A stretch of 63,967 bases of DNA, counting the filler. It is 5 parts of 5 records of this genome, joined end to end, with 100 filler letters (N's around TTAATTAATTAA, not from the genome) between each part and the next. Parts side by side here need not be neighbours in the genome. Positions count along the whole stretch, not along the records: positions 1 to 17,576 come from SRR22947725_1544; 4 more parts are not named here. One strand, written 5' to 3'. The notes beneath the pieces were generated by a model. That model was given only the letters and a program-made list of their open reading frames with translations, had not been told where the DNA came from and ran no database searches. Shown here one piece after another: positions 3,441-49,344 of this stretch. The first letter of the stretch is position 1, and every line of letters starts with the position of its first letter. The position numbers were made by a program, and so were the translations under genes.

Positions 3441-3974
3441 TTGAGCCAAGAATTAGTTACTTACATAGTTCTTGGCTCAAAAACTAGGCTCAAAGGTACA
3501 AAACTACCTCCAAATAATAAATACGAAGAGTATTTGCATCTCAATTTTGATACAAAAAATGATATTGAGAAGAGTCTTGACGACTTAATTGCATTTTCTA
3601 AGGGCGAGTTGATCGTATTACTTCCTCCATCTTCTTTTCCAAATACTCAAGCCAAAGAGGCACTAAAAAAAATAGCTTTAATAGGCTTGTCATCATGGGG
3701 ATGGTTTGAATTTAATTTAAAGAAAAAAAATTTTCTACAAAGCGTAAAAAAGATTAATACCTTGATCAGAAGTATTCCAGATTTGGAACAAGGAATTTAT
3801 TTTTCTAAGAGTTTATATTTTTCAGTTGGCGGAATTGGATCTTTTAATACAGCTCCATTCTCTGAAATTGCAAAAAGACTTTATTCAAGAATTGATCCAC
3901 AAAAACCTCTTTCACCACTTATAATAAGAACAAAAAATCTTACACTAGATTTCTATAATGCATCCAAAAGTTAA
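3441..3974 (+). CDS. Divergent, probably inactive glycosyltransferase family 2-like protein
   Basis: SKGELIVLL...WGWF...EQGIYFSKSLYFSVGG resembles the GT2 (TIGR04283-like) C-terminal pattern but lacks the DxD-like motif; TTG start. Confidence 0.45.
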   Translation: MSQELVTYIVLGSKTRLKGTKLPPNNKYEEYLHLNFDTKNDIEKSLDDLIAFSKGELIVLLPPSSFPNTQAKEALKKIALIGLSSWGWFEFNLKKKNFLQSVKKINTLIRSIPDLEQGIYFSKSLYFSVGGIGSFNTAPFSEIAKRLYSRIDPQKPLSPLIIRTKNLTLDFYNASKS

Positions 3975-4536
3975 AGCAACAAACCTAAGTTATAAAATTA
4001 ATGAAAAGAAATTATTTCAAAATATTTCCTTTGAGCTTATGGCAGGAAAAGCTATTCATATCCAGGGAGATAATGGTTCTGGTAAGACAACTCTTTTAAA
4101 AATTATATGCGGCTTAACAAATCAAGTTAAGGGTGAAATAGAAAAAAAACTTGATAAACAAATATGTTTTTTAGGGCATAAAAATGCCTTAAAACAGTAT
4201 CTCACAGTAGAGGAAAACTTATCGCTTCTTAATATAATTAATCACCCAGACCTCAAACAGCACCTTATTGAATTTAAACTGGATAAAAGTCTTGATATAA
4301 ACCTATCAAGCCTGTCTTTTGGTCAGCAAAAAAAGATTGCTCTATTAAGAGTCTTTTTAAATAATTCTGATCTAATTATTCTAGATGAGCCATGTGTAGG
4401 CTTAGATAATCAATCTCAAAATTACTTATGTAGATTCTTAAATAAAGAGTTAAAGCTTGAAAAGTCAATTTTGTTTTCTTCGCATATTTCGTTAGACATC
4501 AATTCAGAAAAATTAAATTTAAGTAACCAAGTATGA
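3958..4536 (+). CDS. ccmA: Heme export ABC transporter ATP-binding protein
   Basis: Walker A GDNGSGKTT, FLGHKNALK, LSFGQQKK, ILDEP; first gene of the ccm cluster. Confidence 0.9.
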   Translation: MHPKVKATNLSYKINEKKLFQNISFELMAGKAIHIQGDNGSGKTTLLKIICGLTNQVKGEIEKKLDKQICFLGHKNALKQYLTVEENLSLLNIINHPDLKQHLIEFKLDKSLDINLSSLSFGQQKKIALLRVFLNNSDLIILDEPCVGLDNQSQNYLCRFLNKELKLEKSILFSSHISLDINSEKLNLSNQV

Positions 4537-5180
4537 ATATAATAAAATTTGAATTACTTAAACTTAGAAGTAAATCTAGAGGATGGCTTGGACCTATTTT
4601 GGTATTTATTTTAATAATGGTTGCCTTCCCTTTGACTGTGGAAATATCTAACAAAGATTTAGGTAAGTCATTTTTTGCAGTTTTATGGATAGCGATACTT
4701 CTTGTAATGATGCTGGCAACTGAAGATATTTTTTTAGAAGACTTTAATGATGGTTCTTTGGAGCAGTTTGCAATTTCAAATATTAGTTTGCCTTATATTA
4801 TTGCTGTGAAAATTTTTATTTATTGGTTATTAATAGGGGTGCCTATATCTATTATTGGATCTTTGTTTTGTTTGGGTTTTACTAACTCAAGTAATCTTGC
4901 TATTAATATATTTCCTATTTTGCTTATAACATCATATATATTTATTAATGTTTTTAGTTTTGGAAATGCCTTAAGTCTTACGAAGGGGTCGGTTCTTGGC
5001 ACCCTAGTAACATTACCATTATTACTTCCATTACTCATTGTTTTGGGGAAAGCTGTTATTTCTATTAATCTTAATTTAAATTATTTGGGTTTTGTTGCTC
5101 TGCTTTTAGGCGTCTTATCGATTATAATATTTTTAATTCCATTAATTATTTCTTATATTATTAGAGCTCACTTAGAATAA
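4533..5180 (+). CDS. ccmB: Heme exporter permease
   Basis: FLEDFNDGSLEQ motif, LPLLLPLLI, multiple TM segments. Confidence 0.9.
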   Translation: MNIIKFELLKLRSKSRGWLGPILVFILIMVAFPLTVEISNKDLGKSFFAVLWIAILLVMMLATEDIFLEDFNDGSLEQFAISNISLPYIIAVKIFIYWLLIGVPISIIGSLFCLGFTNSSNLAINIFPILLITSYIFINVFSFGNALSLTKGSVLGTLVTLPLLLPLLIVLGKAVISINLNLNYLGFVALLLGVLSIIIFLIPLIISYIIRAHLE

Positions 5181-5206
5181 TTTTTGGTCATAGAGAATAT
5201 CTTATT

Positions 5207-5938
5207 GTGATAAAAAAATTTATACATCAATTTGCTTCGCCTAAGACCTACATGTATCAGGTAGATAGGGCTTATTCGTATATTTTCTATATCTCATTGG
5301 TATTGTATTTGGTTTCTATTTTTTGGGGGCTATTTGTTACTCCAGAAGACTTTGTGCAAGGTAATTCATATAGGATTATTTATCTTCATGTACCTGCTTC
5401 TTTTATTTCTCAATCTTTGTACATTGCAATGGCGATAGCTAGTGCTATTTTTCTTATATGGAAAGTTAAACTTTCAGCATATCTAGTAAGAGCTATAGCT
5501 CCCATTGGTGCTACTACAACATTTATAGCACTAATTTCAGGATCAATATGGGGAATACCCACATGGGGAACTTGGTGGGTTTGGGATGCAAGAATTGTGT
5601 CCACTTTGATACTATTTATTATGTATCTTGGCTTAATATCTTTGCATGATTCGTTTAGTAATCACGAAAAAGCAGATAAGTTTCTTTCAATATTAGTTCT
5701 TGTTGGCTCAGTAAATATTCCAATCATTAAAATGTCTGTGGAGTGGTGGAGCACCCTTCATCAACCAGCATCAATAACAATATCAGATAAACCTGCTATA
5801 GATTTAGTTATGCTGTATCCACTATTTGGTTCGATAGTTGGTTTTGCTGGAATAGTCACGTGCTTAGTTATTCTTTCATCAAAATTACAGATACTGAGAA
5901 GAGAAAGAAATAAATCATGGATAAAAAACTATGTTTAA
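5207..5938 (+). CDS. ccmC: Heme exporter/chaperone-loading protein
   Basis: IIYLHVP, WWD motif WGIPTWGTWWVWDAR, WWSTLHQ. Confidence 0.95.
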   Translation: MIKKFIHQFASPKTYMYQVDRAYSYIFYISLVLYLVSIFWGLFVTPEDFVQGNSYRIIYLHVPASFISQSLYIAMAIASAIFLIWKVKLSAYLVRAIAPIGATTTFIALISGSIWGIPTWGTWWVWDARIVSTLILFIMYLGLISLHDSFSNHEKADKFLSILVLVGSVNIPIIKMSVEWWSTLHQPASITISDKPAIDLVMLYPLFGSIVGFAGIVTCLVILSSKLQILRRERNKSWIKNYV

Positions 5939-6104
5939 TTTTGAATTTAACTCCTTGGCTGAGGCCTTTTTAATGCAAAGTCAAAATGGTCAAAATCATG
6001 GTATTTTTGTTTGGACTGTCCTCATAATTGTTTTCGTATCCATTTTAGCTACATTTATTTTCTATAAAATGAGTATTAAAAAAATCACTAAGAAATTAAA
6101 ATGA
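5931..6104 (+). CDS. ccmD: Heme exporter protein D (57 aa, absent from the ORF track)
   Basis: Manual translation MFNFEFNSLAEAFLMQSQNGQNHGIFVWTVLIIVFVSILATFIFYKMSIKKITKKLK; single TM, basic tail, overlaps ccmC stop and ccmE start. Confidence 0.85.
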   Translation: MFNFEFNSLAEAFLMQSQNGQNHGIFVWTVLIIVFVSILATFIFYKMSIKKITKKLK

Positions 6105-6505
6105 AAGCTATTAGAAAACAAAGATTAATAACAGTTTTATTAATTTTAGCTACCTCAGCAACTGGCTCATTTTTAATTATTCGTGCTCTTGATTCTAATC
6201 TAGATTTTTTCTTTACACCCTCTGAAATATATAAAGAAGAAATACCTAACAACAAAAGAATTAAAGTTGGCGGTATGGTTTTAGAAGGCTCTGTTCTTAG
6301 AGACAAGACAAATATTTCTTTTGTAATAACAGATTACCAGGGATCAATAAGTGTTGAGTTTGATGGCATTGTCCCAGATTTGTTTAAAGAGGGTAGCGGT
6401 GTTGTTGTTCTGGGCTATTTAAGAGATAAAACTTTAGTAGCAGAAGATGTTTTAGCAAAACATGATGAAAATTACATGCCTCCAAGCATCGATATAAAAA
6501 ATTAA
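6101..6505 (+). CDS. ccmE: Heme chaperone
   Basis: VGGMV, PDLFKEG, heme-binding LAKHDENYMPP. Confidence 0.95.
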   Translation: MKAIRKQRLITVLLILATSATGSFLIIRALDSNLDFFFTPSEIYKEEIPNNKRIKVGGMVLEGSVLRDKTNISFVITDYQGSISVEFDGIVPDLFKEGSGVVVLGYLRDKTLVAEDVLAKHDENYMPPSIDIKN

Positions 6506-8401
6506 ATGTTAATAGAGATAGCCCATTTCCTTTCCATTCTTTCAACAGGATTATTTTTTATATGCTTTATCTTTTCATTCTTTTTAAACTCTAAAGATAT
6601 ATTTATTATTAACCTAGTTTCTAGAATATACTCACACAGTTTTTTTATATTTTTATCCTCATTCTTTGTATATGTTTGGTTAGCAATAAGTGATAACTTT
6701 AGTGTTTTATATATTGCTCAACACTCCAATATTAATCTTCCAGTTTTTTATAAACTTTCATCTATTTGGAGCGCTCATGAGGGCTCAATGTTTCTTTGGA
6801 TTATTTTCTTAACATCATGGGGCGCTGTATACAATTTATCGACTTCTAATGATCAACTTTTAAAGGCAAGAACGCTTGGAGTCATATCAATAACGTCTGT
6901 TGGATTTTTATTATTTTTATTATTAACATCAAATCCATTTGAAACTATTCTTCCTGTGCCTCCAGAAAATGGTGCTGATATCAATCCAGTTTTGCAAGAC
7001 CCGCTTTTGGCAATTCATCCTCCCATGTTATATATGGGTTATGTTGGCTTTGTAATAGCTTTTGGACAGGCTATAGCATTTTTATTTGAAGGTAAGCCAG
7101 AAATTAAATGGGAAAAGCAAGTTAGATCCTGGTCACTTGCTTCATGGTCTTTTCTTACTCTAGGGATTGCACTGGGTAGTTGGTGGGCATATTACGAACT
7201 TGGCTGGGGAGGGTACTGGTTTTGGGACCCAGTTGAAAATGTTGCCTTGATGCCTTGGCTTGCAGCAACTGCGTTTGTTCATTCTTTAAGTGCGTCTTCA
7301 AAATCATCTATTTTAAGAATATGGACATTATTGCTATCAATTCTTGTCTTCTCTTTAAGTTTATTTGGAGCTTTCATAGTTAGATCTGGGATCATTGATA
7401 GTGTTCATTCGTTTGCAAATGATCCTGAAAGAGGATTATATCTTCTTGCATTTATCGGACTTCTTGTAATGGTTTCTTTATTACTCTTCTCATTTAGATT
7501 TAATCTCCTCCTTTCAAATAAAAAGATTGCCTCTTTATCAAAAGAATCATTTTTATCGCTAAATAATATCTTCTTTGGAACGTTAATTTTTTCAACAATG
7601 CTAGGCGTCTTGTACCCTTTAATATATGAATTTATATATAATCAAAAGATAAGTGTCGGAGCTCCTTTTTATAACGCAATTTTTGTACCTATAACCTTAA
7701 TAGCATGTATTTTTTTATACTTTTCAATTGATTCAAAATGGCAGCAGAGCTTAAATATAAAATCGCTTTTTCAGCCCCTACCTATATCACTAACATTTTC
7801 AGCAACGATAGTTATCCTAGCTTTTTTTCAGTTTTCAATAACTAATTTGTGGACTTTAGCATCATTGCTAATAGGCTCAATAATTATCATACGATATATG
7901 ATTGTGATTTATTTTTACTTTGTGTACAGAAAGTTTACCAATATCTTCAGCGTTATCGCACATTGTGGCTTGGGTCTCTTAATAATATCGATAGCTTTAA
8001 ATGACAATCTAAGTTCTGAAAGGGCTTTAAATATCAAAATCAATGAAACAGAAATATATAAAGACCATCAAATAACTTTAAAAAACTTGAGAATGGTTCC
8101 TGGACCAAATTTTGATTCTGTAAAAGCAGACTTTTTAATAGAAAATCCAAATGGAAAAACTTTCACCTTAACCCCAGAGAAAAGAAAATATTTTGCTCGA
8201 GGACAAGTGACTACAGAAACTGCTATTCATGCATCTTTTTTAAAAGATATTTATCTAACAATTGGTGACCAGCTTGATGACGGAAGTTGGGTTGTAAATA
8301 TTCAATTTAATATATTTATTAGATGGATATGGTTTTCTGCAATCATGATGGTGGTTGCGGGGTTGTTGCTTGCTCACTCTTTATCGAGATCAAGGCCATG
8401 A
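6506..8401 (+). CDS. ccmF: Cytochrome c heme lyase subunit
   Basis: WSAHEGS, LAIHPP, WAYYELGWGGYWFWDPVEN, SVHSFA. Confidence 0.96.
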   Translation: MLIEIAHFLSILSTGLFFICFIFSFFLNSKDIFIINLVSRIYSHSFFIFLSSFFVYVWLAISDNFSVLYIAQHSNINLPVFYKLSSIWSAHEGSMFLWIIFLTSWGAVYNLSTSNDQLLKARTLGVISITSVGFLLFLLLTSNPFETILPVPPENGADINPVLQDPLLAIHPPMLYMGYVGFVIAFGQAIAFLFEGKPEIKWEKQVRSWSLASWSFLTLGIALGSWWAYYELGWGGYWFWDPVENVALMPWLAATAFVHSLSASSKSSILRIWTLLLSILVFSLSLFGAFIVRSGIIDSVHSFANDPERGLYLLAFIGLLVMVSLLLFSFRFNLLLSNKKIASLSKESFLSLNNIFFGTLIFSTMLGVLYPLIYEFIYNQKISVGAPFYNAIFVPITLIACIFLYFSIDSKWQQSLNIKSLFQPLPISLTFSATIVILAFFQFSITNLWTLASLLIGSIIIIRYMIVIYFYFVYRKFTNIFSVIAHCGLGLLIISIALNDNLSSERALNIKINETEIYKDHQITLKNLRMVPGPNFDSVKADFLIENPNGKTFTLTPEKRKYFARGQVTTETAIHASFLKDIYLTIGDQLDDGSWVVNIQFNIFIRWIWFSAIMMVVAGLLLAHSLSRSRP

Positions 8402-8928
8402 CTATTTTTATTAGATTTATAATAATTAGCACCGCTTTAATGTTTTTTACATTTTTTTATCTATACATAAACGATAATAAATACTACCCAGGAGCAGATT
8501 TCACTACTTCTAATATGCCGGATTTTGAGATTAAAGATTTATATTCTGAAAGAGTTTTTAGTGTTAAAGATTTAAATGGTAGCTATTTAATTAATGTTTG
8601 GGCTAGCTGGTGTATAACGTGTCGAATAGAGCATAGTTTTTTAGCTAAATTGGAATCTAACAATATACCAATTATTGGCCTTAATTATAAAGATGAAAAA
8701 GATGACGCTATAAATTGGATAACAAAGTTTGGTGACCCATATAAGTATATTATTCATGATTACAAAGGAGAGCTTGCTTTAGACCTTGGAGTCACTGGCG
8801 CGCCAGAAACATTTTTATTAAATGATGGAAAAATTATTGTTCATTATAGAGGTGAGGTGAATGACATGATTTGGAATGATGTATTCAAGCCCATTATTAT
8901 GAAGGAGAATATCTTTAATGCTAATTAA
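8398..8928 (+). CDS. ccmG: Thiol:disulfide interchange protein DsbE/CcmG
   Basis: NVWASWCITC, GLNYKD, GVTGAPETF; ATG overlapping ccmF stop chosen as start. Confidence 0.92.
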   Translation: MTIFIRFIIISTALMFFTFFYLYINDNKYYPGADFTTSNMPDFEIKDLYSERVFSVKDLNGSYLINVWASWCITCRIEHSFLAKLESNNIPIIGLNYKDEKDDAINWITKFGDPYKYIIHDYKGELALDLGVTGAPETFLLNDGKIIVHYRGEVNDMIWNDVFKPIIMKENIFNAN

Positions 8929-9295
8929 GATCTTTTTATTTTTCTCAATAATATTTTCTAGCTTCACTGTAGGTGAATCTCTCTATGAGTTTGATAGCAT
9001 TGAAGATGAAAAAAGATTTTATACATTAATAAAAGAAATTAGGTGTCCAAAATGCACAAGCGGCTCTTTGGCCAGTTCAAATGCACCGGTTTCTGAAGAT
9101 ATAAAATCAAAAATAATACAGTTGATAAAAGAGGGAAAATCAGATCAAGAAATAAAAGAATTTTTATCTGACAGGTTTGGCAATCAGGTTTTATATAACC
9201 CAGGTTTAAGCAAAGACACATACTTTCTTTGGTTTGCACCAGGTTTGTTTTTAATACTAATTCTTCTTTTTTTCTTTTTCAGAAAAAGAGCATAA
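8918..9295 (+). CDS. ccmH: Cytochrome c biogenesis protein CcmH
   Basis: IRCPKC motif, RFGNQVLYNP, C-terminal LWFAP TM. Confidence 0.92.
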   Translation: MLIKIFLFFSIIFSSFTVGESLYEFDSIEDEKRFYTLIKEIRCPKCTSGSLASSNAPVSEDIKSKIIQLIKEGKSDQEIKEFLSDRFGNQVLYNPGLSKDTYFLWFAPGLFLILILLFFFFRKRA

Positions 9296-10074
9296 TGATA
9301 ATAGTTTATTTGCTAGCTTTCATTTCATTATTTCCTGTATATGCCTACTTATTGGCACCAAAAACAAAAAATAAAGGGTATATTTTTGGCATTTCATTTT
9401 TAATTTTAATTTTTTGTTTATTTTCATTCGTTGGTAAATATTCTTTTCTTGGTTCTATAAAAGAACAAGAAATAAATAATAAAATATTTTTAATAATCGA
9501 GCAGGATAGTGAAATACCAGTGAATCTATTTAACTCATTTGATGCAATTATTGATGAAGAAAGCAAACTTTATTGGACCCAAAGTTATATACAGAAAGCT
9601 ATGTCAGAGCAGAAGCTTCAAGCAGCTGAGAGTCTTATTTCTTTTTCAGAAAAATACTTCATGACATCAGATGAGAAGTTTGTTTTTTATAATTTGTACA
9701 CTCAACTTCGAGATTTAAAGTTCCCTATTTTTGTAAACTCTAAATTTATTCTTAACCTTTCTCCACCTGCTGATTGTAAAAATTATAAAGGAAATATTTC
9801 GTTGTTTATTATGAATGGCCCCAACATACCTATTGCAAGTCAAAATTTCCAGAATTCTTTCGAAGTTTCATTAGGTAATAATAATTCTTCAATTCCTGGA
9901 TTTGATCTTGCTTCAGCCTACCTTAATCAAGAAGCTTTGGAGCTTAAAGCATCATTATTTTGTGTTGAAAAAAACTTGGATTATTTTTCTGAAAATGCCT
10001 TATTATTTGATCAAAATAACCATATAAATACCTATAATATTAGGCCAAATGAATGGTTAAAAAGAGAACAATAG
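9295..10074 (+). CDS. Divergent CcmI/CycH-like protein
   Basis: Position after ccmH, two N-terminal TMs, C-terminal GPNIPIA resembling the CcmI C-terminal domain; TPRs not obvious. Confidence 0.5.
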   Translation: MIIVYLLAFISLFPVYAYLLAPKTKNKGYIFGISFLILIFCLFSFVGKYSFLGSIKEQEINNKIFLIIEQDSEIPVNLFNSFDAIIDEESKLYWTQSYIQKAMSEQKLQAAESLISFSEKYFMTSDEKFVFYNLYTQLRDLKFPIFVNSKFILNLSPPADCKNYKGNISLFIMNGPNIPIASQNFQNSFEVSLGNNNSSIPGFDLASAYLNQEALELKASLFCVEKNLDYFSENALLFDQNNHINTYNIRPNEWLKREQ

Positions 10075-10107: not shown

Positions 10108-13095
10108 ATGCAGCTAAATCATATAAAACTTTCAGGTTTTAAAAGTTTCGTAGATCCAACGAAGATATCTTTTCCGACAAATTTAGTGGGTGTTGTGGGG
10201 CCTAACGGTTGTGGCAAGTCTAATGTTATTGATGCTGTTAGATGGGTTCTTGGAGAACTATCTGCAAAAAATCTTCGTGGCGAATCTATGGTCGACGTTA
10301 TTTTTAATGGATCTGAAAATAGAAAACCATCTGGGCAATGCAGTATCGAGCTATTATTTGATAACTCAAGTGGAAAAATTGGTGGCGAATATGCTTCATT
10401 CAATGAAATTTCGATTAAAAGAGTTATGACTAGAGATGCTCAATCTACCTATTTCATTAACAGCACAAAATGTAGAAGAAAAGATGTTCAAGACATATTT
10501 TTAGGAACGGGACTAGGCCCAAGCTCATATGCAATTATTGAACAAGGCATGGTTAGTAAATTAGTAAGCGCAAAGCCTGAAGAGTTAAGAACCCATATTG
10601 AAGAGGCTGCTGGAGTTTCAAAGTATAGAGAAAGAAGAAGAGAAACTGAGAGCAGAATCAAAAAAACTAAAGAAAATTTATCTAGAGTTAAAGATATTAA
10701 AGATGAGATTGAGAGGTTAATCAGAAGGCTCGAAAATCAAGCAAATGCTGCAGAAAAATATAATCAATTTAAAAAAGATGAAAGTCAGAAGCAAACCGAT
10801 ATTGCAATACTATACTCACTTGAGGCTAAAAATAATCGAGATAAACTTCAAAAAAATCTTGATGCGTTAAATAGAGATTTAAAAATCAAGCAGGCTGAAT
10901 CAGATTCAAAACAAGCTCAAATTGATGAACATAGAACACAAAATGCTTCTGTTGTAGATGCATATGAAAATGCTCAAAAAAACTTCTATTCGATAGGTGC
11001 TGATATAGCTAAATATGAATCAGATCTTCAAAATGTTAGCAAATTAGAAATTTCTAATACAGATGCTCTCGAAAGAGCAAAAACAAGCTATCAAGATGCT
11101 GTTGAAAAAGAATCAAGTTTCAAGGATTTAAGCCCTAAAGAAAAAGAATTAAAACTAGATATTGCTATTGTAAAAGCTCTTGATGCTCTTAAGCAAAAAA
11201 GTATTATTGATGTCTCCATAAATCCCTTAGAGGAAAAAATTGCTCAAAAACAACATGAACTCGACTCAAAACAAAATATTGTAGATGCAGCTAAAGCAGA
11301 TCAGACTGAAATTACCGAAGAAATCAAAATTCTTCAACAACAAAAATATTCTATTGAGGCTGATATTGCAAGACTTGAGGGGGCACTTCAGAACCTCAAT
11401 AAGATAGAAGAGAACGCAAGATTAGATTTTGAGAAAGCAAGCAGTAATTATTCTGATGCATTGCAAAAAGAGGCCAATAACGAACACTTGACCCCAAAAG
11501 AAAAAGCTATTCATTTACTTGATTCTATCACCGAACTATTGAAAGCATTTGGCTCTAAAGCAGATTCATTAAACTCCAAGGTTGATGAATTAAAAGTACT
11601 GCTAATAAATATCCTTAAAATTGCATCAGATCAATCTAAAAATTATACAGCTGATTTTTTAAACAGAAAGAATCAACTAGAAGATCTTATCAGAACAACA
11701 TCTGAAGATGTATTCTCTAAAAATAAAGAATTATCTGAATTAAAAGAAAAGAATATAAAAATTAAAAATGAGTTGGACTCTGGGTTGGAAAACCAGCGTA
11801 ATGTTGATGAAAAAATTAGAGACTTAGATAGCAGCAAATCATTAGTATCGAATGAACTACGAAGTTTAGAAAAGAATATTTCTGATTACAGGCTTGAGTT
11901 AAGAACGCATGAGATTAATCTAGAAAATGCTTCCATGGTATTGGATAAAGCTGGTATAAGTTTATCAGAACTAGATTCATCTAAGTATGCAGGAGCAGAC
12001 CTTGTAAGCCTGGAGAATTCACTAGATGAGATTCAAAAAAATATTGCTGAATTAGGATCATTTAACCTAGCTTCACCGGAGGAATATTTAGAAAGACAAA
12101 AAGAGCTTAACAATATGATTTCAGATGGCAAGGCTAAAAAACTTGAAATTCAAAAAGTTATGTCAGATCTTGTTGAAAAAAGCTCTATTGCTGAATCAAA
12201 ATTAACTGACATTAGACAAAAGCAGTCAGAATTTAATAACAGTTTAAGAGAATTAGAAAATCAAAAGTCTATTGCTGATCTTGATTTAAAATCTATTGGT
12301 GAGAAGGTTACTAACCTTAGGCTTGAGCTTAAAACCCATGAGATAAATTTAGATAACGCTAATACTAAAATTGCAGAATCTGGAGTAAATATAGAAAATA
12401 TTGATTTTTCAAAGTATGAAAATATGGATATTAATGAGTTGCAGAATAGTCTGACAGATATCCAAGCTAAAATTATTCGTCTTGGAGCAATTAACTTAGC
12501 AGCTCCTGAAGAAATTGCATCCGAATCAAAAAGAAAGGAAGAATTAGATATTCAGTATAATGACTTAACAGAAGCCCTTGAAAAACTTACTGGAGCTATC
12601 AAGACAATTGATATAGAAACAAAGACAAGATTTCAAGATAGCTTTGATGCTATTAATAATAGAATGAAAGAGGTATTCTCAAAATTATTTGGTGGTGGTA
12701 TAGCTGAGTTAGCTTTGACTGAGGATGATGCATTAAATGCTGGTGTGGTTATTATGGCAAGGCCCCCAGGTAAGAAAAATTCTTCTATTTCACAATTATC
12801 TGGTGGTGAAAAAGCTTTAACTGCTTTAGCACTAGTTTTTGCAATATTTGAACTCAATCCTGCACCATTTTGTATATTAGATGAGGTAGATGCTCCTCTT
12901 GATGATCTAAATACAATGCGTTTTATAAATATGGTTGAAGAGATGTCAAAAACAGTCCAATTTATCTTCATCACTCATAATAAAGTATCAATGGAAAAGA
13001 GTGATCATTTGATGGGTGTAACAATGCAGGAGGCCGGTGTTTCAAGAATGGTATCCGTTGATGTAAATCAAGCATTAGAATTTGCTGAGGCCTAA
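10108..13095 (+). CDS. smc: Chromosome segregation protein Smc (995 aa; atypical, no recognisable hinge, internally duplicated arms)
   Basis: GFKSF, Walker A GPNGCGKSN, R-loop AKNLRG, Q-loop IIEQG, EEAAG, signature LSGGE, Walker B/D-loop ILDEVDAPLD, ITH. Confidence 0.95.
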   Translation: MQLNHIKLSGFKSFVDPTKISFPTNLVGVVGPNGCGKSNVIDAVRWVLGELSAKNLRGESMVDVIFNGSENRKPSGQCSIELLFDNSSGKIGGEYASFNEISIKRVMTRDAQSTYFINSTKCRRKDVQDIFLGTGLGPSSYAIIEQGMVSKLVSAKPEELRTHIEEAAGVSKYRERRRETESRIKKTKENLSRVKDIKDEIERLIRRLENQANAAEKYNQFKKDESQKQTDIAILYSLEAKNNRDKLQKNLDALNRDLKIKQAESDSKQAQIDEHRTQNASVVDAYENAQKNFYSIGADIAKYESDLQNVSKLEISNTDALERAKTSYQDAVEKESSFKDLSPKEKELKLDIAIVKALDALKQKSIIDVSINPLEEKIAQKQHELDSKQNIVDAAKADQTEITEEIKILQQQKYSIEADIARLEGALQNLNKIEENARLDFEKASSNYSDALQKEANNEHLTPKEKAIHLLDSITELLKAFGSKADSLNSKVDELKVLLINILKIASDQSKNYTADFLNRKNQLEDLIRTTSEDVFSKNKELSELKEKNIKIKNELDSGLENQRNVDEKIRDLDSSKSLVSNELRSLEKNISDYRLELRTHEINLENASMVLDKAGISLSELDSSKYAGADLVSLENSLDEIQKNIAELGSFNLASPEEYLERQKELNNMISDGKAKKLEIQKVMSDLVEKSSIAESKLTDIRQKQSEFNNSLRELENQKSIADLDLKSIGEKVTNLRLELKTHEINLDNANTKIAESGVNIENIDFSKYENMDINELQNSLTDIQAKIIRLGAINLAAPEEIASESKRKEELDIQYNDLTEALEKLTGAIKTIDIETKTRFQDSFDAINNRMKEVFSKLFGGGIAELALTEDDALNAGVVIMARPPGKKNSSISQLSGGEKALTALALVFAIFELNPAPFCILDEVDAPLDDLNTMRFINMVEEMSKTVQFIFITHNKVSMEKSDHLMGVTMQEAGVSRMVSVDVNQALEFAEA
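10798..11508 (+). repeat. Diverged tandem duplication in the Smc N-terminal arm (2 x 120 aa)
   Basis: DIAI at 10798 and 11158; KQAESDSKQ/KQHELDSKQ; YSIGADIAK/YSIEADIAR; SPKEK (11131)/TPKEK (11491); constant 360-nt offset. Confidence 0.9.
11653..12510 (+). repeat. Diverged tandem duplication in the Smc C-terminal arm (2 x 143 aa)
   Basis: RLELRTHEINL (11890)/RLELKTHEINL (12319); SKY; NSL..IQ; LGSFNLASPE/LGAINLAAPE; constant 429-nt offset. Confidence 0.92.
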
Positions 13096-13724
13096 TGGAA
13101 CAAAATATTGATATATATCTAATTGGTTTATCTGTTCTAATTTTCTTAATTATTACATTTCTATTCATTAGAAAAATTTCAAGTTCTGGAGAACTAAAGG
13201 TAAAAATTGAACCTATTACAGATTCTTTTGAGATCAAAGAGATAGATGAAATAGAGGTAAAATCTCAAAAAGCCTTTGACTTTAATGAGCATGATATAGA
13301 ATATCAAGAACAAAAACTTGTTGTCCTTAATTTAATATCTAACGATAAATCTATGTTTGATATCGATCAAATATATGGCTTTATGACAAATTCAAATGCT
13401 ATTCTTACTAACGGTTTTTTCGTGATTAAAGATACAAATAATAAAGAGTCATTTCGTATAGCAAATGCTTTAAATCCTGGTACTTTTGAAAATGAAACAG
13501 AAACTTTTGCTATTCTTTTGGCAACAGATTTGAATAACGTACCTAACCCATTGAGTTCAGTAAAAGAAATGGTAAATTTTGCTTATCATTTTTCTGAAAA
13601 ATTTTATGCAAATATATGTGATCAAGAAAGAATGCCTATAACAAAGCAAATGATTTCGCATATTGAATCCCAGGCACAGGAAATTATGAGATTAAAACAG
13701 CTTAGCAGTTTAGAAAATAAATAA
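13095..13724 (+). CDS. zipA: Cell division protein ZipA (compact)
   Basis: N-terminal TM anchor, C-terminal FRIANALNPGTF like the ZipA FtsZ-binding domain; directly after smc. Confidence 0.75.
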   Translation: MEQNIDIYLIGLSVLIFLIITFLFIRKISSSGELKVKIEPITDSFEIKEIDEIEVKSQKAFDFNEHDIEYQEQKLVVLNLISNDKSMFDIDQIYGFMTNSNAILTNGFFVIKDTNNKESFRIANALNPGTFENETETFAILLATDLNNVPNPLSSVKEMVNFAYHFSEKFYANICDQERMPITKQMISHIESQAQEIMRLKQLSSLENK

Positions 13725-13742
13725 TTATGATTCTTAATTAAA

Positions 13743-15026
13743 ATGAAGCCCTGGAAAATAATTCAGAAATTAGAAAGCGACAATAGCAGGCTATTTAAAG
13801 AAGGTGTTATAGAAGATAATCTTCATGATATTATTTTACAAGAGGGGCTATCAATGTGTTTGGATGCGTTGGTAACATTTGGGGTCAAACAAGTTCCTGA
13901 ATCTAGTAATGACGGAAAAGGACTTGATTGGGATAAATTTAAATCATCTGCACTGCTTCTAATAAATAGGGAAAGAACTGGCCATGCTGCTAGAGATGAA
14001 ATTTTACATTTAATGTCTCTTGCTACAACAGAACAATGGAATGATTGGTATAGAAGAATTTTAATTAAAGATCTCAGATGCGGAGTAAGTCAAAAAACAG
14101 TCAATAATGTTTCAAAAAAAATGGGATTAAAATATAGCGTACCTGTTTTCTCATGTATGTTAGCTCATGATGGCGCCAAACATCCAAAAAAAATTCAAGG
14201 AAAATGTCTCGTTGAATATAAATATGATGGGGTTAGAGTCTTAGCTATTACAAAAAAAAATAGCACAACTCTTTATAGCAGAAATGGAAAAATTTTAGGT
14301 AATTTTCCGCATATAGAAGATGCACTAAATAAGAAAGAATTTAATAATCTAGTATTTGATGGAGAGGTAGTCAGCGATGACTTTCAGTCTCTCATGAAGC
14401 AAGTTCATCGAAAAACTAATGCTAAAACTGATGATGCTTATCTAGCTCTATTTGACATAGTACCTTTAGAAGAATTTAATAAAGGTAAAAGTAAGCTCAA
14501 TAGTCTAGAAAGAAAAGATTTGCTTAATGATCTGTCAAAAAATTTCAACTCTTGTATTAAACCGGTTGAATATGTAATCTTAGATTTTGATACCGAAGAT
14601 GGCCAAAAAACATTCTCAGGTATGAATAAGAAGGCATTAGAAGAGGGTTATGAGGGGTTAATGATCAAACCAATTAACGATATATACGAATCTAAAAGAA
14701 GTCACGCTTGGCTTAAGATAAAACCTTTTATAGAAGTTACTCTAAAGGTTACTCAAATTCAAGAAGGTACTGGAAAGCACGAGGGTAAGCTTGGAGCGTT
14801 TTCAGTTGAAGGAGAGGATGATGGTAAGTTTTTCTCTTTAAGTGTTGGAAGCGGCCTTACAGACGATGATAGAGAAAAATTTTGGAAAGCTAGAGATTCT
14901 TTAATAGGCCAATTAATTGAAATTAGAGCTGATGCTATCACTCAAAGTATTGAGGGAGAGCATTTCAGCTTAAGATTCCCTCGTTTTAAAACTTTTAGAG
15001 GCTTTGAACCGGGTGAAAAAATCTAA
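13743..15026 (+). CDS. ATP-dependent DNA ligase with N-terminal DNA-binding domain (T4/LigW-like)
   Basis: Motif I EYKYDGVR, SRNGK, III FDGEV, IIIa LFDIV, IV EGLMIK, V WLKIKP, OB-domain VGSG, VI LRFPRF; N-domain IKDLRCGVS. Confidence 0.93.
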   Translation: MKPWKIIQKLESDNSRLFKEGVIEDNLHDIILQEGLSMCLDALVTFGVKQVPESSNDGKGLDWDKFKSSALLLINRERTGHAARDEILHLMSLATTEQWNDWYRRILIKDLRCGVSQKTVNNVSKKMGLKYSVPVFSCMLAHDGAKHPKKIQGKCLVEYKYDGVRVLAITKKNSTTLYSRNGKILGNFPHIEDALNKKEFNNLVFDGEVVSDDFQSLMKQVHRKTNAKTDDAYLALFDIVPLEEFNKGKSKLNSLERKDLLNDLSKNFNSCIKPVEYVILDFDTEDGQKTFSGMNKKALEEGYEGLMIKPINDIYESKRSHAWLKIKPFIEVTLKVTQIQEGTGKHEGKLGAFSVEGEDDGKFFSLSVGSGLTDDDREKFWKARDSLIGQLIEIRADAITQSIEGEHFSLRFPRFKTFRGFEPGEKI

Positions 15027-15637
15027 TGAGTATTAAATATTTAAAAGTACCATTAATTTTTTTGTTAGGCTTAACACTTCAATCCTGTATGGCAACACCT
15101 CCTAAGAATCCTGACAATATCTGTTTAATTTTTGAGGAAAAAAAGAGCTGGTATACAGCTGTTATGAAGTCTGAAAAAAGATGGAAAATTCCGCCGTATG
15201 TATTAATGTCTTTTGTATATCAAGAATCAAGCTTTCAATCAGATGCAAAGCCTGAGAGAACAAAATTACTATGGGTTATTCCATGGAAAAGAAAATCAAC
15301 TGCAGTTGGCTACTCACAAGCTCTAAATATGACCTGGGAAGATTATAAAGAGGAAACTGGAAACACTAGGGCAAACAGAAAAGATTTTAGAGATTCAGCA
15401 GATTTTATAGGTTGGTATGCAAGCAAAGGCTACTATCAAGGTTTTGATAGGCTAGATGCGCGTTCACTTTATCTCGCCTATCATGAGGGATATGGAGGGT
15501 TTAAGAAAAAAACTTATAGAAAAAAACCCTGGTTAATTAAAGTAGCAGATAGAGTCCAAACAAGATCTACGAAATATCAACAGCAATACTGGGGATGTGC
15601 AAAAGAGCTAAAGAGGAAAAGGTTCTTTTTCTTCTAA
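15026..15637 (+). CDS. Lipoprotein with transglycosylase SLT-like domain
   Basis: Lipobox LQSC; YQESSF catalytic Glu motif, STAVGYSQA, DFIGWY, LYLAYHEGYGG. Confidence 0.8.
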   Translation: MSIKYLKVPLIFLLGLTLQSCMATPPKNPDNICLIFEEKKSWYTAVMKSEKRWKIPPYVLMSFVYQESSFQSDAKPERTKLLWVIPWKRKSTAVGYSQALNMTWEDYKEETGNTRANRKDFRDSADFIGWYASKGYYQGFDRLDARSLYLAYHEGYGGFKKKTYRKKPWLIKVADRVQTRSTKYQQQYWGCAKELKRKRFFFF

Positions 15638-15638
15638 A

Positions 15639-17576
15639 TTAGATATTTTTTATATCAAAATTAAGCTTAGAAAGCTCTTCGGTAAAGTTCTCACCAGCTA
15701 TAACGGATTTTTTAGAATCATTAAATAAATACTTTTCGGAAACTTTTACAAGATCTTCTAAAGTACATTCTTTTACTCTTGATCTAAAAAGCAAGCGCTC
15801 TTCTTGTGTTTTATTATCAAGCTCACTCATAAAATCACTCATTGCTTCACCGTAAGGAGATAATGGCTTATCTATACTTGAGATAACCCCTAGCACACCT
15901 TCTTCAAGCTGATCATTTGATATGTTTTTCAAAGACCATGCTCTAGAATTTTTAAATTCTTCAAACGTTTCTATACATTTTGGATCCCTATAAGAGAAAA
16001 ATTTAAATACTTTATTATTTGAATCTTGAGTAGCGCCAGACCCATAAGCACCACCTTTCTCTCTAATTGCCGAATGAAGATAGCCATTACGCAATACAGT
16101 TCCAAGAACAGTTAAAGCAGGAGCATCCTCATGCTTTGAATCAACTGATGGGAAAGCTTCTGCACAAAAACATACTTGCGATCCAGTAACCCAGCCAACT
16201 GAGTTATTTTGAACATCAACAAAATCTTGATTATTTAAATCAAAAGTTTCTGAATTAAATATAGTATTTAGTTTAAGGTCGGATTGATGTAATGATGAGG
16301 CAGTAAATAAATAGTTAGGTGTTTTTGATAACTTATTTTTAATGGAATGCAGAGCATTTAAATATAAATCAAATTCATTCTTATCATTTACTAACTTAGA
16401 TAATTTATTTGTATTATGTATAAATCTTAAGCCTGAAGTTAAATCATTAGTTGCTGCAATATCTGTTATTTGAGATGCAGCATTACTCATTGATAGGATA
16501 TGACCATTTTGAATTACAGATTTTTCGTTATCTGCAGATATAAACTCTAGCAACTCTTTAATTCTCTTTGATTCGTTAAAATTTGAATCACTAATTGTTT
16601 TTAGCATCAAATCCTGCATTAGCAGATCATTTTTTTCTAAGCTCTTGGATGAGAGCTTTAAAGCTAATTTATATGAGTTGCCATCATCATTCGGTAAAGT
16701 AATAAAGGAAGCAGAAATGCCGCCAGTTATTGAAGATTGATATCTTTGAATATCTTCATATGAATCTTGACCAAGGCCAATATCTGTTAATGTGCTTGTA
16801 AAAAGGTTTGCAACACTTAACTCATCCTGGTTTAAAGCATCGCATGGAAATAACATAGAATGATAAACGATACCGTTTGTACCAGTTTTGTAAAAATAAT
16901 TAGTATTTGTTTTAGTTTTTGTTATTACTGGAGATGCATAGTTTCTTGAAAGGGGGATGTCGTCTTTTGTTACCTTTGGAAGAATCTCAGGATCATCTTG
17001 TGCATTCTGTCTGGTTTCAAGCTCGTTAGCTAGCCTTACAATATCTTCCTTTTCTTTTTGTGATAAATCCCTAGTTTTTTCAAAGACTTTTTGCTGGATT
17101 TTATCTTCATTTTTTTTATTGAATTCAGTGTCTGGTACAAGAGAGTAATTCAACCTATGCGCATTTAAAATAAGATTTTTTTCTATGAGCTTTTCAATAT
17201 AATTTTCTGATTTTAGATTTTCTTTAATAGCATCAAATGCATTATCTAGATCTAGAATTTCAAGAGGATTGTCATTATGTATACAAGCTGGTAAACAATT
17301 TAACATTATTTGAAGCCCAAATGGCATGCCTGAGCCTGTTATTTCTCTTTGTCTTATCTCAAGTTGATGTAAAGAGGAGTTTATTAAGTCTTTAGGAACC
17401 CCATCCTTAACAAGCGATTCAAGACAGTCAATTATCAATTTTTCGACTTCAATATGCTTATTTGCATCCACCCCCTCGAGACCAGCTGCAAAAACAAGTT
17501 CTTTTTGATCTGCCTCAAGTCCTGTAAGAGGAGATGGTGATGTACCTAATTCTGAACCCTCTAGAGCTTTTCGAAG
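15639..17576 (-). CDS. M16C (PreP/insulinase-like) metallopeptidase, 5' part cut off by contig end
   Basis: TNGIVY, IREKGGAYG, FFSYRDP motifs; frame stays open to 17576. Confidence 0.88.
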   Translation of the reverse strand, partial: LRKALEGSELGTSPSPLTGLEADQKELVFAAGLEGVDANKHIEVEKLIIDCLESLVKDGVPKDLINSSLHQLEIRQREITGSGMPFGLQIMLNCLPACIHNDNPLEILDLDNAFDAIKENLKSENYIEKLIEKNLILNAHRLNYSLVPDTEFNKKNEDKIQQKVFEKTRDLSQKEKEDIVRLANELETRQNAQDDPEILPKVTKDDIPLSRNYASPVITKTKTNTNYFYKTGTNGIVYHSMLFPCDALNQDELSVANLFTSTLTDIGLGQDSYEDIQRYQSSITGGISASFITLPNDDGNSYKLALKLSSKSLEKNDLLMQDLMLKTISDSNFNESKRIKELLEFISADNEKSVIQNGHILSMSNAASQITDIAATNDLTSGLRFIHNTNKLSKLVNDKNEFDLYLNALHSIKNKLSKTPNYLFTASSLHQSDLKLNTIFNSETFDLNNQDFVDVQNNSVGWVTGSQVCFCAEAFPSVDSKHEDAPALTVLGTVLRNGYLHSAIREKGGAYGSGATQDSNNKVFKFFSYRDPKCIETFEEFKNSRAWSLKNISNDQLEEGVLGVISSIDKPLSPYGEAMSDFMSELDNKTQEERLLFRSRVKECTLEDLVKVSEKYLFNDSKKSVIAGENFTEELSKLNFDIKNI

Positions 17577-17676
17577 NNNNNNNNNNNNNNNNNNNNNNNN
17601 NNNNNNNNNNNNNNNNNNNNTTAATTAATTAANNNNNNNNNNNNNNNNNNNNNNNNNNNNNNNNNNNNNNNNNNNN
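17577..17676. other. Artificial contig spacer
   Basis: N44-TTAATTAATTAA-N44; abrupt compositional change. Confidence 0.98.
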
Positions 17677-37885: not shown

Positions 37886-37985
37886 NNNNNNNNNNNNNNN
37901 NNNNNNNNNNNNNNNNNNNNNNNNNNNNNTTAATTAATTAANNNNNNNNNNNNNNNNNNNNNNNNNNNNNNNNNNNNNNNNNNNN
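37886..37985. other. Artificial contig spacer
   Basis: N44-TTAATTAATTAA-N44. Confidence 0.98.
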
Positions 37986-38343: not shown

Positions 38344-39501
38344 ATGATGGATAAATACTTTAAATCTTCAGTTTTTAAGGACGTAATTTATTTTTTTTTA
38401 GGTTCAGTATTTGGAAGATTTTTTTCAGTAATATTAACTCCTTTTTTAGCTATTACTTTATCTCCTGCAGAATTAGGAGAGTATGATATGATTATTTCAA
38501 CTTTATTAATAGTTACACCTTTTATGAATTTACAATTAAACGAGGGTCAACTATTGTATTCACTTAAAGAAAAGAAACCTTCAAAATCTATATACACCTC
38601 ATTAGTTTTTTCAATTCTCACCTCATTAATTGGTTCTATAAGTTCATATATAATTTTAGAGTACCTAACTTATAAATATTCATTTGTTGTAAGTCTTTTG
38701 ATTTTTTTAGTTTCAATGTGGCCAATAGTTTTAACAATTTTCAGGTCTAAAAACCAATCTTTCTTATATGCACTATTTAGTTCTTTAGTCACTCCAATTT
38801 TACTTATATATTTATATGCTACACCAAATTTTAATATTGAAAGGGTTCTTCAGGGATTAGTATTAGCTTATTCAATAATTATTATTCCGATTATCTTATT
38901 TAACATAAATAAATATAATTTTAGTTTTGAATTACTTAAAAAAATAATTCGATATTCATATCCATTTATTTTTAACACTTTGTTTTGGTGGATTCAATCA
39001 ATAGCATTAAGGTACTTATTAATTTATTACGATTCAATTGAAATAGTCGGTAAGTTTGCTGTTGATTTCAAAATTGCATCTATAATAATTCTAATATCAA
39101 ATGTTCTATATATGACTCAGCAGAATAATGTGTTCACATTGAAAACATTAAATATTAATTTCAATCCATATATTTTATTAATAGTTTTAAGCTTATTAAT
39201 AGCGATTACTGCACCAATTTTTGTTGATTACTTTTTGCCAGATTTTTTCTTGTTCAATAAATCATCCTTTATTTTGATAGCCTCGGCAATGTTTCAAGGT
39301 TTTGCTATCTTTGAAGGTGTTAAATATCAAATTTCTTTTAAAAGTATGATATTACTAAAGTCCAATATTATATCTTCAATTTTAGGAGTAATAATAGCTA
39401 TACCCCTAATTTCAATTTATAGCGAACTTGGAGCTGCTATCAGCCTTTTAATTTCTAATATAATTCTTTTTTTAACGCGTAAATTTTTTTATAATGAATA
39501 A
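38344..39501 (+). CDS. wzx: Oligosaccharide flippase
   Basis: Multi-TM, LTP...LSPAELGEY, YSYPFI; very AT-rich; cluster context. Confidence 0.78.
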   Translation: MMDKYFKSSVFKDVIYFFLGSVFGRFFSVILTPFLAITLSPAELGEYDMIISTLLIVTPFMNLQLNEGQLLYSLKEKKPSKSIYTSLVFSILTSLIGSISSYIILEYLTYKYSFVVSLLIFLVSMWPIVLTIFRSKNQSFLYALFSSLVTPILLIYLYATPNFNIERVLQGLVLAYSIIIIPIILFNINKYNFSFELLKKIIRYSYPFIFNTLFWWIQSIALRYLLIYYDSIEIVGKFAVDFKIASIIILISNVLYMTQQNNVFTLKTLNINFNPYILLIVLSLLIAITAPIFVDYFLPDFFLFNKSSFILIASAMFQGFAIFEGVKYQISFKSMILLKSNIISSILGVIIAIPLISIYSELGAAISLLISNIILFLTRKFFYNE

Positions 39502-42744: not shown

Positions 42745-42798
42745 GAGTTTTAAAATAAAATAAAGCCAAATTTAATATTACTTAATTAACTATTAGAA

Positions 42799-44226: not shown

Positions 44227-44231
44227 TAATT

Positions 44232-45182: not shown

Positions 45183-45209
45183 GTTTTCATTTTAATTTTT
45201 TTAATAATT

Positions 45210-46502: not shown

Positions 46503-46505
46503 TTT

Positions 46506-47747: not shown

Positions 47748-48423
47748 GTTAGGAAGATATAATTATAGTCTAGATAAATCGATTACTAGTTTTGATCTTT
47801 TTTTAGTGATGTATAGAATGTCATTTCAATTATTAATGGGACTTTATTTAAAACTATTCTTAAAATCATCTAAAGGAATAGTCTTTGTGGGAAGACGTAC
47901 TAGAATATATCATAAAAATAAAATTTCTGTTGGTAGAACTTTAAATATTGGTCATAATGTTTATATAAATGCACTTTCTGTGCATGGTATAACTATAGGT
48001 AATAATTTTACATTAAAAGATAATTGTATTATAGATTGCACTGGGGTATTAAGAAGTTTAGGGCAAGGCCTTAGAATTGGCAATAATGTAGGTATATCTG
48101 AAAACTGTCATATTCAAGTTCGAGGTAATGTTGTAATAGGGGATAATGTAATTCTTGGTCCAAATGTTTCGATATTTTCAGAAAATCATAATTTTTCTGA
48201 TCTAGATATTCCAATAAATCTTCAAGGAGAATCAAGAAAAGGTGTTAAAATAAATGATGGAGTATGGATTGGTTCACGAGCTACTATCTTAGATGGAGTT
48301 TCTATAGGAGAAAATAGTATAATAGCTGCTGGGAGTGTAGTTGTTAAAGACGTACCACCCTTTTCAATAGTTGGTGGTGTTCCTGCTAAAGTTTTAAAAC
48401 AAAGAAAACAAATTAATAAATAA
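47716..48423 (+). CDS. Hexapeptide-repeat O-acyltransferase
   Basis: Left-handed beta-helix repeats, ENHNF, VWIG, GVPAK. Confidence 0.88.
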
Positions 48424-48431
48424 CAATAAAA

Positions 48432-49331: not shown

Positions 49332-49344
49332 TCTTAACTAAAAT

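Follow-up and report, generated by a model that had tools for sequence, protein, structure and literature searches.

Can a bacterium give up its NAD-dependent DNA ligase, LigA, and replicate its chromosome with an ATP-dependent enzyme encoded at the same place? Textbooks and recent reviews hold that bacteria replicate with LigA and that ATP ligases are add-ons. The question is raised by a locus in a stretch of 63,967 nucleotides (the window), which is made up of five contigs. The finding concerns the first contig (positions 1-17576; guanine-plus-cytosine (GC) content about 31%), where a gene for an ATP-dependent DNA ligase of 427 amino acids (aa) lies on the + strand at 13743-15026. A first-pass annotation had suggested that this gene occupies the ligA slot of an smc-zipA-ligA operon through displacement by a phage-type enzyme, possibly as a second case after that of high-light Prochlorococcus. 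We assign the contig to SAR86, and we consider it very probable that in the SAR86 lineages that carry it this enzyme, which is of the T4 type and resembles the Prochlorococcus marinus ligase Pmar-Lig, is the sole DNA ligase and stands in the slot of ligA; that it entered SAR86 once from a phage-type source, independently of Prochlorococcus; and that it was exchanged at the slot thereafter.

The gene is intact. In its product two Pfam models score above their cut-offs: PF01068, the adenylation domain of ATP-dependent ligases, with 80.1 bits (cut-off 26.2), and PF14743, the OB_2 domain, with 44 bits (cut-off 28). A helical DNA-binding region (residues about 1-135) is followed by the nucleotidyltransferase domain (148-327) and the OB domain (341-419). 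The motifs that place a protein among the ATP-dependent DNA ligases are all present: motif I (KYDG, 160-163, with K160 as the predicted adenylated lysine), motif III (DGE, 206-208), motif IV (EGLMIK, 304-309) and motif V (WLKIK, 323-327) in the adenylation domain, and motif VI (LRFPRF, 410-415) in the OB domain. The N-terminal region contributes TGHAARD (79-85), IKDLRCG (108-114) and LVTFGVK, the last seen in the translation, so that every motif listed by the first-pass annotation could be found again. When all PDB chains were searched with phmmer, the best matches were the four Pmar-Lig entries 6RAU, 6RAS, 6RAR and 6RCE (E 5.6e-134, residues 5-427 against 10-442); the next-best were archaeal and eukaryotic ligases, at E 1e-17. 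From the 53% identity to Pmar-Lig, an assayed enzyme, we infer that the SAR86 ligase uses ATP and seals nicks.

The protein is also held under strong constraint. Among 22 SAR86 copies 234 of the 427 residues are invariant; the motif I lysine and motifs IV and V do not vary except at one residue, and motif III keeps D206 and G207. The ratio of nonsynonymous to synonymous substitution (dN/dS) is 0.033-0.052 in six pairs of SAR86 ligases with dS below 1, and 0.036-0.055 in five further pairs, saturated at dS above 1 and indicative only; the pair L018-L020 was left out. Such values are the signature of a housekeeping gene and would fit an essential one.

Three other identities were tried for the 427-aa protein and rejected. 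It is not a LigA, as it has no Pfam match to PF01653, the Zn finger, HhH or BRCT of a TIGR00575-type protein. It is not an end-joining ligase of the LigD/Ku kind, since it carries ligase domains only and Ku (PF02735) was found in 0/5 genomes of relatives. Nor is it the minimal periplasmic Lig E, an enzyme of about 260-300 aa that has a signal peptide and no DNA-binding domain: it is 427 aa long, its residues 5-135 align to the DNA-binding domain of Pmar-Lig, and its N-terminus (MKPWKIIQKLESDN...) is hydrophilic, with no hydrophobic stretch resembling a signal peptide on reading of the translation. The absence of a signal peptide and of a Ku neighbour noted in the first pass is borne out.

The gene is fitted very tightly into its surroundings. 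Upstream, smc (995 aa, 10108-13095, +; PF02463 SMC_N, E 1e-51) is followed by a short form of zipA (209 aa, 13095-13724, +; PF04354 ZipA_C, E 5.6e-14), and direct reading of the sequence gives a spacer of 18 nt (13725-13742) between zipA and the ligase. Downstream, the last base of the ligase open reading frame (ORF) is the first base of the next, at 15026; this is the gene of an SLT_4 lytic transglycosylase lipoprotein (203 aa, 15026-15637, +; PF19489, E 6.9e-72). Further out are the cytochrome c maturation genes ccmA/B/C...F/G/H and a 281-aa membrane ORF (3958-10074, +; Pfam ABC_tran, CcmB, Cytochrom_C_asm, CcmF_C, Redoxin, CcmH), and, on the other side, a convergent gene for a PreP/M16C-type peptidase (15639-17471, -; PF08367, PF22516, PF05193), which loses its N-terminal part at the end of the contig (17576). 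These flanks are core genes and include no prophage genes. Since the 18-nt spacer and the 1-nt overlap enclose the ligase, there is no room for a remnant of ligA, and none of the 62 window ORFs scanned with Pfam (9 + 53) has a ligA domain; on the spacing, the overlap, and the lack of a ligA remnant or prophage context the first reading was right. The position of the gene suggests that it is co-expressed with smc, zipA and SLT_4.

The same ligase, at 73-97% identity, was found in 21 loci in a scan of species-representative genomes. The titles of 16 of these name SAR86 and those of the other five only Gammaproteobacteria or Proteobacteria in the broad sense; the closest (97% identity) comes from the SAR86 single-cell genome SCGC AAA168-P09. 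The order ccmF-ccmG-ccmH-ORF-smc-zipA-ligase-SLT_4-PreP is kept in 21/21 loci, as far as each of them reaches: smc is upstream of zipA in all 21, and, limited by the reach of the loci, ccmF is seen in 18/21 and the 281-aa ORF in 20/21. What makes this a ligA slot is the arrangement in other SAR86. There, ligA stands between zipA and the same SLT_4 gene in 12/12 returned loci and in 40/40 further regions, picked across all score classes, which together represent 51 distinct SAR86 genomes. SLT_4 directly follows the ATP ligase in 21/21 loci and ligA in 52/52, and smc is upstream of zipA in the 40/40 ligA loci that were fetched. In the nearest ligA-bearing relatives (L115-L124) even the wider context is identical, from the ORF upstream of smc to PreP. 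A clade-wide comparison of synteny, proposed with the first-pass annotation, therefore finds one smc-zipA-[ligase]-SLT_4 slot for both enzymes, and the possibility that ligA had never stood downstream of zipA in this group is contradicted by the 51 genomes. The ATP ligase at this position is, on the gene order, an in-situ non-orthologous displacement of ligA.

LigA itself (here 660-740 aa) consists of the PF01653 adenylation domain, OB, Zn-finger, HhH and BRCT domains, and uses NAD. The copies in the SAR86 family nearest to the window (L115-L124, e.g., G198:C3:71381-73462) are 710-749 aa long, and their match to TIGR00575 is divided in two (about 1-405 and 407-651) with no break in the open frame. 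Some 40 aa are thus implied to be inserted at about model position 405, which we take to be the junction of the OB and Zn-finger domains; the LigA of other SAR86 families, at 660-690 aa, lacks it. One further ligA locus (L199, G228:C2:289500-295500) shows repeated frame shifts in ligA, smc, zipA and SLT_4 alike, with a ligA match that is below the cut-off and contains a stop. The "broken" ligA of G228 looks like the product of an error-rich assembly and not like a decaying gene.

A slot that holds an ATP ligase does not by itself tell that ligA is gone from the genome. The genome-wide tests were run on SAR86 relatives whose ligases are 97-78% identical to that of the window, namely five ATP-ligase genomes of 1.2-1.3 Mb, some with contigs of 0.77-0.91 Mb. 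Neither TIGR00575 above its cut-off nor the NAD-ligase adenylation domain PF01653 nor Ku was found in any of the five, and PF01068 had exactly one match in each. Weak TIGR00575 matches (E 2e-6 to 4e-3) were seen in three of them (G001, G002 and G005, loci L022-L024); they span only model positions about 502-564, lie in frames of 595-606 aa, and contain two to three stops inside the match. The LigA of the nearest ligA-bearing relative (L117), compared with five ATP-ligase genomes, one of which is assembled as a single contig of 1.19 Mb (G007), gave no credible match; the sole hit had an E value of 0.004 and four stops.

The two ligases exclude each other on a larger scale as well. In the family of the window's relatives, represented by 139 species genomes, the ATP ligase was found in 56, ligA in 63 (58 of them above the cut-off), neither in 20 and both in none. 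In an even sample of 201 genomes from the order, 32 had the ATP ligase, 144 had ligA above the cut-off and five had it in part, and again no genome had both. Incomplete assemblies cannot account for the lack of co-occurrence in 0/56 genomes, because ligA is visible in 63 of the 83 other genomes of the family. The ATP ligase thus appears to be the only DNA ligase of the cell, and the intact ligA elsewhere in the same genomes that the first-pass annotation had named as a refutation did not turn up.

In the 1.19-Mb assembly of G007 the ligase (L198, G007:C1:873000-880500, about 3686-4962) is split into two frames by the loss of one T from a T-run, at the junction SVPVF|SCMLAHDG, and PreP at this locus shifts frame likewise. 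Rather than a pseudogene, the split probably reflects an error in a homopolymer run of a long-read assembly.

How often did the slot change hands? If the displacement had happened once and been inherited ever since, the ATP-ligase genomes should form one clade. In a tree of Smc plus SLT_4 from 62 genomes (22 with the ATP ligase, 40 with ligA) they do not, and forcing them together costs 270 log-likelihood units (approximately unbiased (AU) test, p 3e-11). The tree of PreP, a separate neighbouring marker, forces three changes of ligase type across starred branches: the ATP-ligase locus L017 is sister to the ligA-bearing L120 (100, starred), and the ligA-bearing L117 and L118 are nested (99, starred) among 21 ATP-ligase genomes. 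The LigA tree is consistent with the trees of the flanking genes and, because of this agreement, ligA in these lineages looks vertically inherited.

The case of L017 can be followed on a finer scale. In the ligase trees it is nested (99-100, starred) inside the group of L005 and L013-L021, and its ligase shares 88% identity with the L018 enzyme, while the flanking genes of these two loci share only 73% (Smc), 52% (ZipA), 74% (SLT_4) and 59% (PreP). With the ligA-bearing L120 the same four genes share 81, 67, 89 and 74%. In windows of 150 nt L017 is nearer to L120 in the upstream flank, as far as the final window ahead of the ligase, and nearer to L018 across both gene ends, and it returns to L120 from 150-300 nt into SLT_4, so that the affinity switches within 150 bp of both ends of the ligase. 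On this mosaic, L017 stands for a SAR86 lineage that formerly had ligA and received an ATP-ligase cassette from another SAR86 lineage through recombination confined to the slot. The pattern of L117 and L118 requires at least one further change, which could be separate gains or a reversion to ligA. Taken together, the trees indicate that the slot switched ligase type at least twice and probably three times. The earlier proposal of a displacement in situ therefore stands as to the place; it does not stand as a single clean event, with at least two switches within one SAR86 family. We think it likely that ligA and the ATP ligase are interchangeable alleles of one slot, swapped at least twice and probably three times by events confined to the gene, and never coexisting.

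Where did the ATP ligase come from? In a sample of 400 genomes of the class it is present in two, and these are the SAR86 genomes of the sample. All 1254 matching records of cultured phages are below 60% identity to the window ligase, and the best among those listed reach 29-37%. Closer relatives were found in IMG/VR, with 43 loci at 44-56% identity. The four IMG/VR contigs that were annotated carry phage genes: topoisomerase II subunits, UvsX, a DnaB-type helicase, thymidylate synthase, a head protease, tail-fibre proteins and endolysins. Metagenomes, scanned with a degenerate motif, added 73 loci, among them 18 full-length ligases at about 30% GC. Two of the 18 were checked against the PDB and are of the Prochlorococcus type (803 and, for L156, 965.7 bits to 6RAU); the context of L156 is cellular, with genes for ValRS, VTT, SprT, MnmG and DnaB.

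In a quick tree of 117 rows, the 22 SAR86 ligases form one clade (100, starred) that joins a small IMG/VR clade (99, starred), and the 18 ligases of the Prochlorococcus type form a clade of their own (100, starred) that joins a different, large clade of phage-contig and metagenome sequences (97, starred). A careful tree of 54 rows places the SAR86 clade (100/100, starred) with P0123 and L078/L080 (99/96, starred) and then with L074-L082 (97/90, starred), and the Prochlorococcus clade (100/100, starred) with the other phage group (99/99, starred). Forcing the SAR86 and Prochlorococcus ligases into one clade, a grouping that was chosen after the tree had been inspected, costs 78.5 log-likelihood units (AU p 0.009). 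To us these trees point to a single entry of the gene into SAR86, out of a marine phage-type source, with a phage as the putative donor. Because the two sets of ligases group with different clades of phage contigs and a joint clade is rejected, the trees support an acquisition independent of that of Prochlorococcus, which would make SAR86 the second case that the first-pass annotation had considered possible.

One sequence falls into none of the sampled clades. P0121 (439 aa), the representative of a cluster at 50% identity, is 58% identical to the window ligase, matches 6RAU with 494 bits, and shares 61% identity with some phage-contig ligases; it is neither of the SAR86 nor of the Prochlorococcus type, and it could stand for a third cellular lineage or another group of phages.

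Among the known systems, the Prochlorococcus enzyme is the one to which the SAR86 ligase must be compared. In the available part of the structural paper (PMC6698739), Pmar-Lig is an ATP-dependent ligase whose three domains form a clamp around nicked DNA, with a DNA-binding domain that hardly differs from the one in T4 ligase; it seals nicks about as well as T4 ligase does, and blunt ends are not joined. A preprint of 2020 reports that high-light Prochlorococcus has no full-length NAD ligase, has at least two ATP ligases together with truncated NAD-dependent ligases, and carries one of the former, AD-Lig P, downstream of recA, at the position of the NAD ligase of low-light strains; on nicks, the activity of AD-Lig P exceeds that of the low-light NAD ligase more than 10-fold, and the authors claim the first such case in bacteria. 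From the wording of the preprint we infer that Pmar-Lig is AD-Lig P. The first-pass annotation had named LigW as the replacement in Prochlorococcus; according to the preprint this role belongs to AD-Lig P, and a few strains have AD-Lig W, on a genomic island. In the Prochlorococcus-type locus L156 recA was not seen within 6 kb of the ligase.

The window ligase and that of L156 are 53.3% identical over 430 columns. Pmar-Lig has the same Pfam content (PF01068 and PF14743) and is collinear over its full length, including the N-terminal DNA-binding domain, and both enzymes are found or, for Prochlorococcus, reported to occupy the ligA position in a surface-ocean bacterium with a small, low-GC genome and no full-length ligA. 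There are differences too. Prochlorococcus belongs to another phylum and its ligase to another slot (the ValRS, VTT, SprT, MnmG and DnaB genes of L156, as against zipA and SLT_4); its high-light strains have two or more ATP ligases and truncated NAD ligases, whereas in SAR86 one ATP ligase stands alone, with no truncated copies of the NAD ligase; and in SAR86 the ligase types alternate among close relatives, with a cassette that moved between lineages. That the two genes descend from the same acquisition was considered and rejected, on their separate clades and on the AU test given above.

Phage ligases of PHROG 114 (T4-like, SPO1-like) are of the same family, the related phage-contig ligases matching phrog_114 with E values of 1e-92 to 1e-97, and in the trees the marine phage-contig ligases (44-56% identity) are the nearest relatives outside SAR86. 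Unlike these, the SAR86 gene is chromosomal, single-copy, placed among core genes, vertically conserved and under strong purifying selection. LigA (TIGR00575) shares with it the slot, in 51 SAR86 genomes, and presumably the cellular job, but no relationship in sequence or domains to a protein built from a helical DNA-binding domain and ATP-ligase motifs. LigD, LigC and LigE have the catalytic core of nucleotidyltransferase and OB domains in common with the SAR86 enzyme. LigD differs by its polymerase and phosphoesterase domains, which the SAR86 protein lacks, and by its partner Ku, which was absent from the five genomes; the minimal LigC and LigE, in the available part of a review, are without the N-terminal DNA-binding domain that the SAR86 ligase has. 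The same source describes accessory ligases as coming in addition to the NAD ligase, whereas the SAR86 ATP ligase was never found together with ligA.

If the solved homologue and the established chemistry of ligases are a guide, K160 would be adenylated by ATP, the helical, nucleotidyltransferase and OB domains would encircle the nicked duplex, and the AMP would be moved to the 5' phosphate before sealing of the nick. With no other ligase in the cell, this one would join Okazaki fragments and close the nicks left by repair, and so take over the essential role of LigA. Its gene would have entered SAR86 once, from a marine phage-type source and separately from Prochlorococcus, and the cassette would then have passed among SAR86 lineages by recombination confined to the slot, so that close relatives carry either ligA or the ATP ligase and none carries both.

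Other explanations of the locus have to be weighed against this one. The gene could be an accessory ligase for repair, with an intact ligA elsewhere that was missed in incomplete assemblies or moved by a rearrangement. Most bacterial ATP ligases are indeed accessory, as far as the available review text goes, the genomes are single amplified genomes (SAGs) and metagenome-assembled genomes (MAGs), 20/139 family genomes show neither ligase, and the search for ligA covered relatives. We nevertheless find this account highly improbable, in view of the absence of ligA from all 56 family and all 32 order-sample genomes with the ATP ligase against its presence in 63/83 of the remaining family genomes, the lack of PF01653 and of any LigA match in five genomes that include contigs of 0.77-1.19 Mb, the absence of Ku from all five, and the fact that the site occupied is the ancestral ligA slot. 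An error of assembly or binning, by which a phage or foreign fragment was mis-joined into a SAR86 contig, may come to mind since the window is a multi-contig composite with one clearly foreign contig of 56% GC. The chance of this we put close to nil: the gene lies inside the first contig, tied to core genes by the 18-nt spacer and the 1-nt overlap and matching its surroundings in GC, and the same junctions recur in 21/21 independent assemblies, both SAGs and MAGs, from different projects.

With respect to the history of the gene, the repeated switching would vanish if there had been a single ancient displacement with strictly vertical descent and if the interleaving of the two types came from using genes next to the slot as a proxy for the species tree. 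All SAR86 ATP ligases do fall into one clade, the species markers are three linked genes (Smc, SLT_4 and PreP), and several backbone branches of the Smc+SLT_4 tree are unstarred. We still hold this to be unlikely. Monophyly is rejected on Smc+SLT_4, PreP forces three changes and the LigA tree agrees; the L017 ligase is 88% identical to that of L018 between flanks at 52-74%, with affinities that flip at the gene ends; and flanking genes that travelled along with the cassette would raise the apparent monophyly of the ATP-ligase genomes, not lower it. Instead of two independent acquisitions from phages, the ligase could have passed directly between SAR86 and high-light Prochlorococcus, one way or the other. 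In favour of this, the Prochlorococcus enzyme is by far the closest solved structure, and the two organisms have in common the surface-ocean habitat and a similar GC (about 31%). Yet the identity is only 53%, not above that of the phage-contig ligases, and each lineage goes with a different phage-contig clade at a support of 97-99%, with the joint clade rejected; we regard such a transfer as very unlikely.

Several points weigh against the reading that we prefer, a sole and replicative ATP ligase in SAR86 acquired once from a phage-type source and exchanged at the slot. The genomes are SAGs and MAGs whose completeness is not stated, and with 20/139 of them showing neither ligase, absence from a single genome is weak evidence; what carries the argument is the 0/56 count, together with large contigs such as the single 1.19-Mb contig of G007 and one of 912 kb in G004. 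The loss of ligA was read from relatives and is a probable one for the window's own source assembly, and the use of ATP and the replicative role are drawn from homology and from the absence of another ligase. For two of the three switches the direction is ambiguous between repeated gain and a gain followed by reversion in L117/L118. The grouping rejected by the AU test was, as said, picked after the fact, and the immediate phage-contig sister of the SAR86 clade differs between the quick and the careful tree. In the IMG/VR records of one sister clade, terminase (PF03237), T4 Gp23 (PF07068) and the capsid of nucleocytoplasmic large DNA viruses (PF04451) were each found in 0/5, a result that tells nothing either way, as the five records are fragments of 10-39% completeness and the Gp23 and capsid searches were run without a positive control. 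Lastly, RNA libraries from three studies include contigs that cover the ligase gene at 95% identity or more, and one of 1869 nt corresponds to 13974-15700 and crosses the ligase/SLT_4 junction; they prove neither transcription nor its strand or level, DNA carry-over being possible, and were not counted as evidence.

The same side of the balance holds the IMG/VR contig L076 (38.7 kb; ligase at 8001-9287), which belongs to the clade nearest to SAR86 and in which the ligase adjoins genes of a cellular type: parts of an ABC transporter, saccharopine dehydrogenase, aldehyde dehydrogenase and TctA. Upstream of the ligase L076 has the same pair as L082, a DUF6551 gene and a short ORF. L076 may be a provirus, or it may be a cellular contig, from another cellular lineage with this ligase.

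We found no report of a DNA ligase replacement in SAR86 in the full-text literature, a coverage that leaves out most subscription journals; in the available main text of a 2024 paper on SAR86 isolates and comparative genomics (PMC11582366) the only "ligase" is a bile-acid-CoA ligase. High-light Prochlorococcus, in the 2020 preprint, is the only exception to LigA that was met in the literature covered. With SAR86 the phenomenon reported there gains a second, independent member, and what is new is the alternation of two ligase classes in one slot among close relatives, a switching that goes beyond what the first-pass annotation had proposed.

A second, independent replacement turns an oddity into a pattern, all the more so as SAR86 belongs to another phylum and is among the most abundant bacteria of the surface ocean. 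Both cases involve a streamlined surface-ocean lineage with a related phage-type ligase in the ligA slot. If our reading is true, an ATP ligase would serve replication in about 40% of the species of a clade that ranks among the most abundant heterotrophic ones in the ocean, and the bacterial "NAD-ligase rule" would be contingent in the wild and not a constraint. There would then be near-neighbour pairs that differ in the cofactor of the replicative ligase, such as G131 (L017, ATP ligase) and G101 (ligA), and SAR86 would offer matched natural comparisons for the question of why bacteria prefer NAD ligases; candidate factors that could be set against the ligase type are the economy of NAD or ATP, phage pressure, exposure to light and ultraviolet radiation, and genome streamlining. 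There are practical sides too. LigA is in use as a drug target and also as a "universal" marker of bacteria; genomes without it, such as these, will be given lower completeness estimates. The ATP ligase of SAR86 and its phage relatives, for their part, enlarge the set of natural variants of a compact, well-behaved scaffold for nick-sealing ligases.

It remains to describe the rest of the window. Its five contigs are separated by spacers of the form N44-TTAATTAATTAA-N44 at 17577-17676, 37886-37985, 53026-53125 and 58747-58846, and adjacency across these points is not genomic. The second contig (17677-37885) has a GC content of 53-56%, as against 25-36% for the others, and encodes PAC2, two WYL-domain proteins, DUF3099, SURF1 and TrmI, a set of genes that we take to be actinobacterial in appearance; it is probably a foreign contig from a different organism in a SAR86 bin or SAG. 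The third contig, with the lowest GC of the window (25-30%), has a polysaccharide gene cluster at 38344-52770, all on one strand. The cluster comprises four glycosyltransferases, a pyruvyl transferase, UDP-glucose dehydrogenase and epimerases, together with dTDP-rhamnose genes of the RmlD, RmlA and RmlC types, and its content would fit a surface-glycan island.

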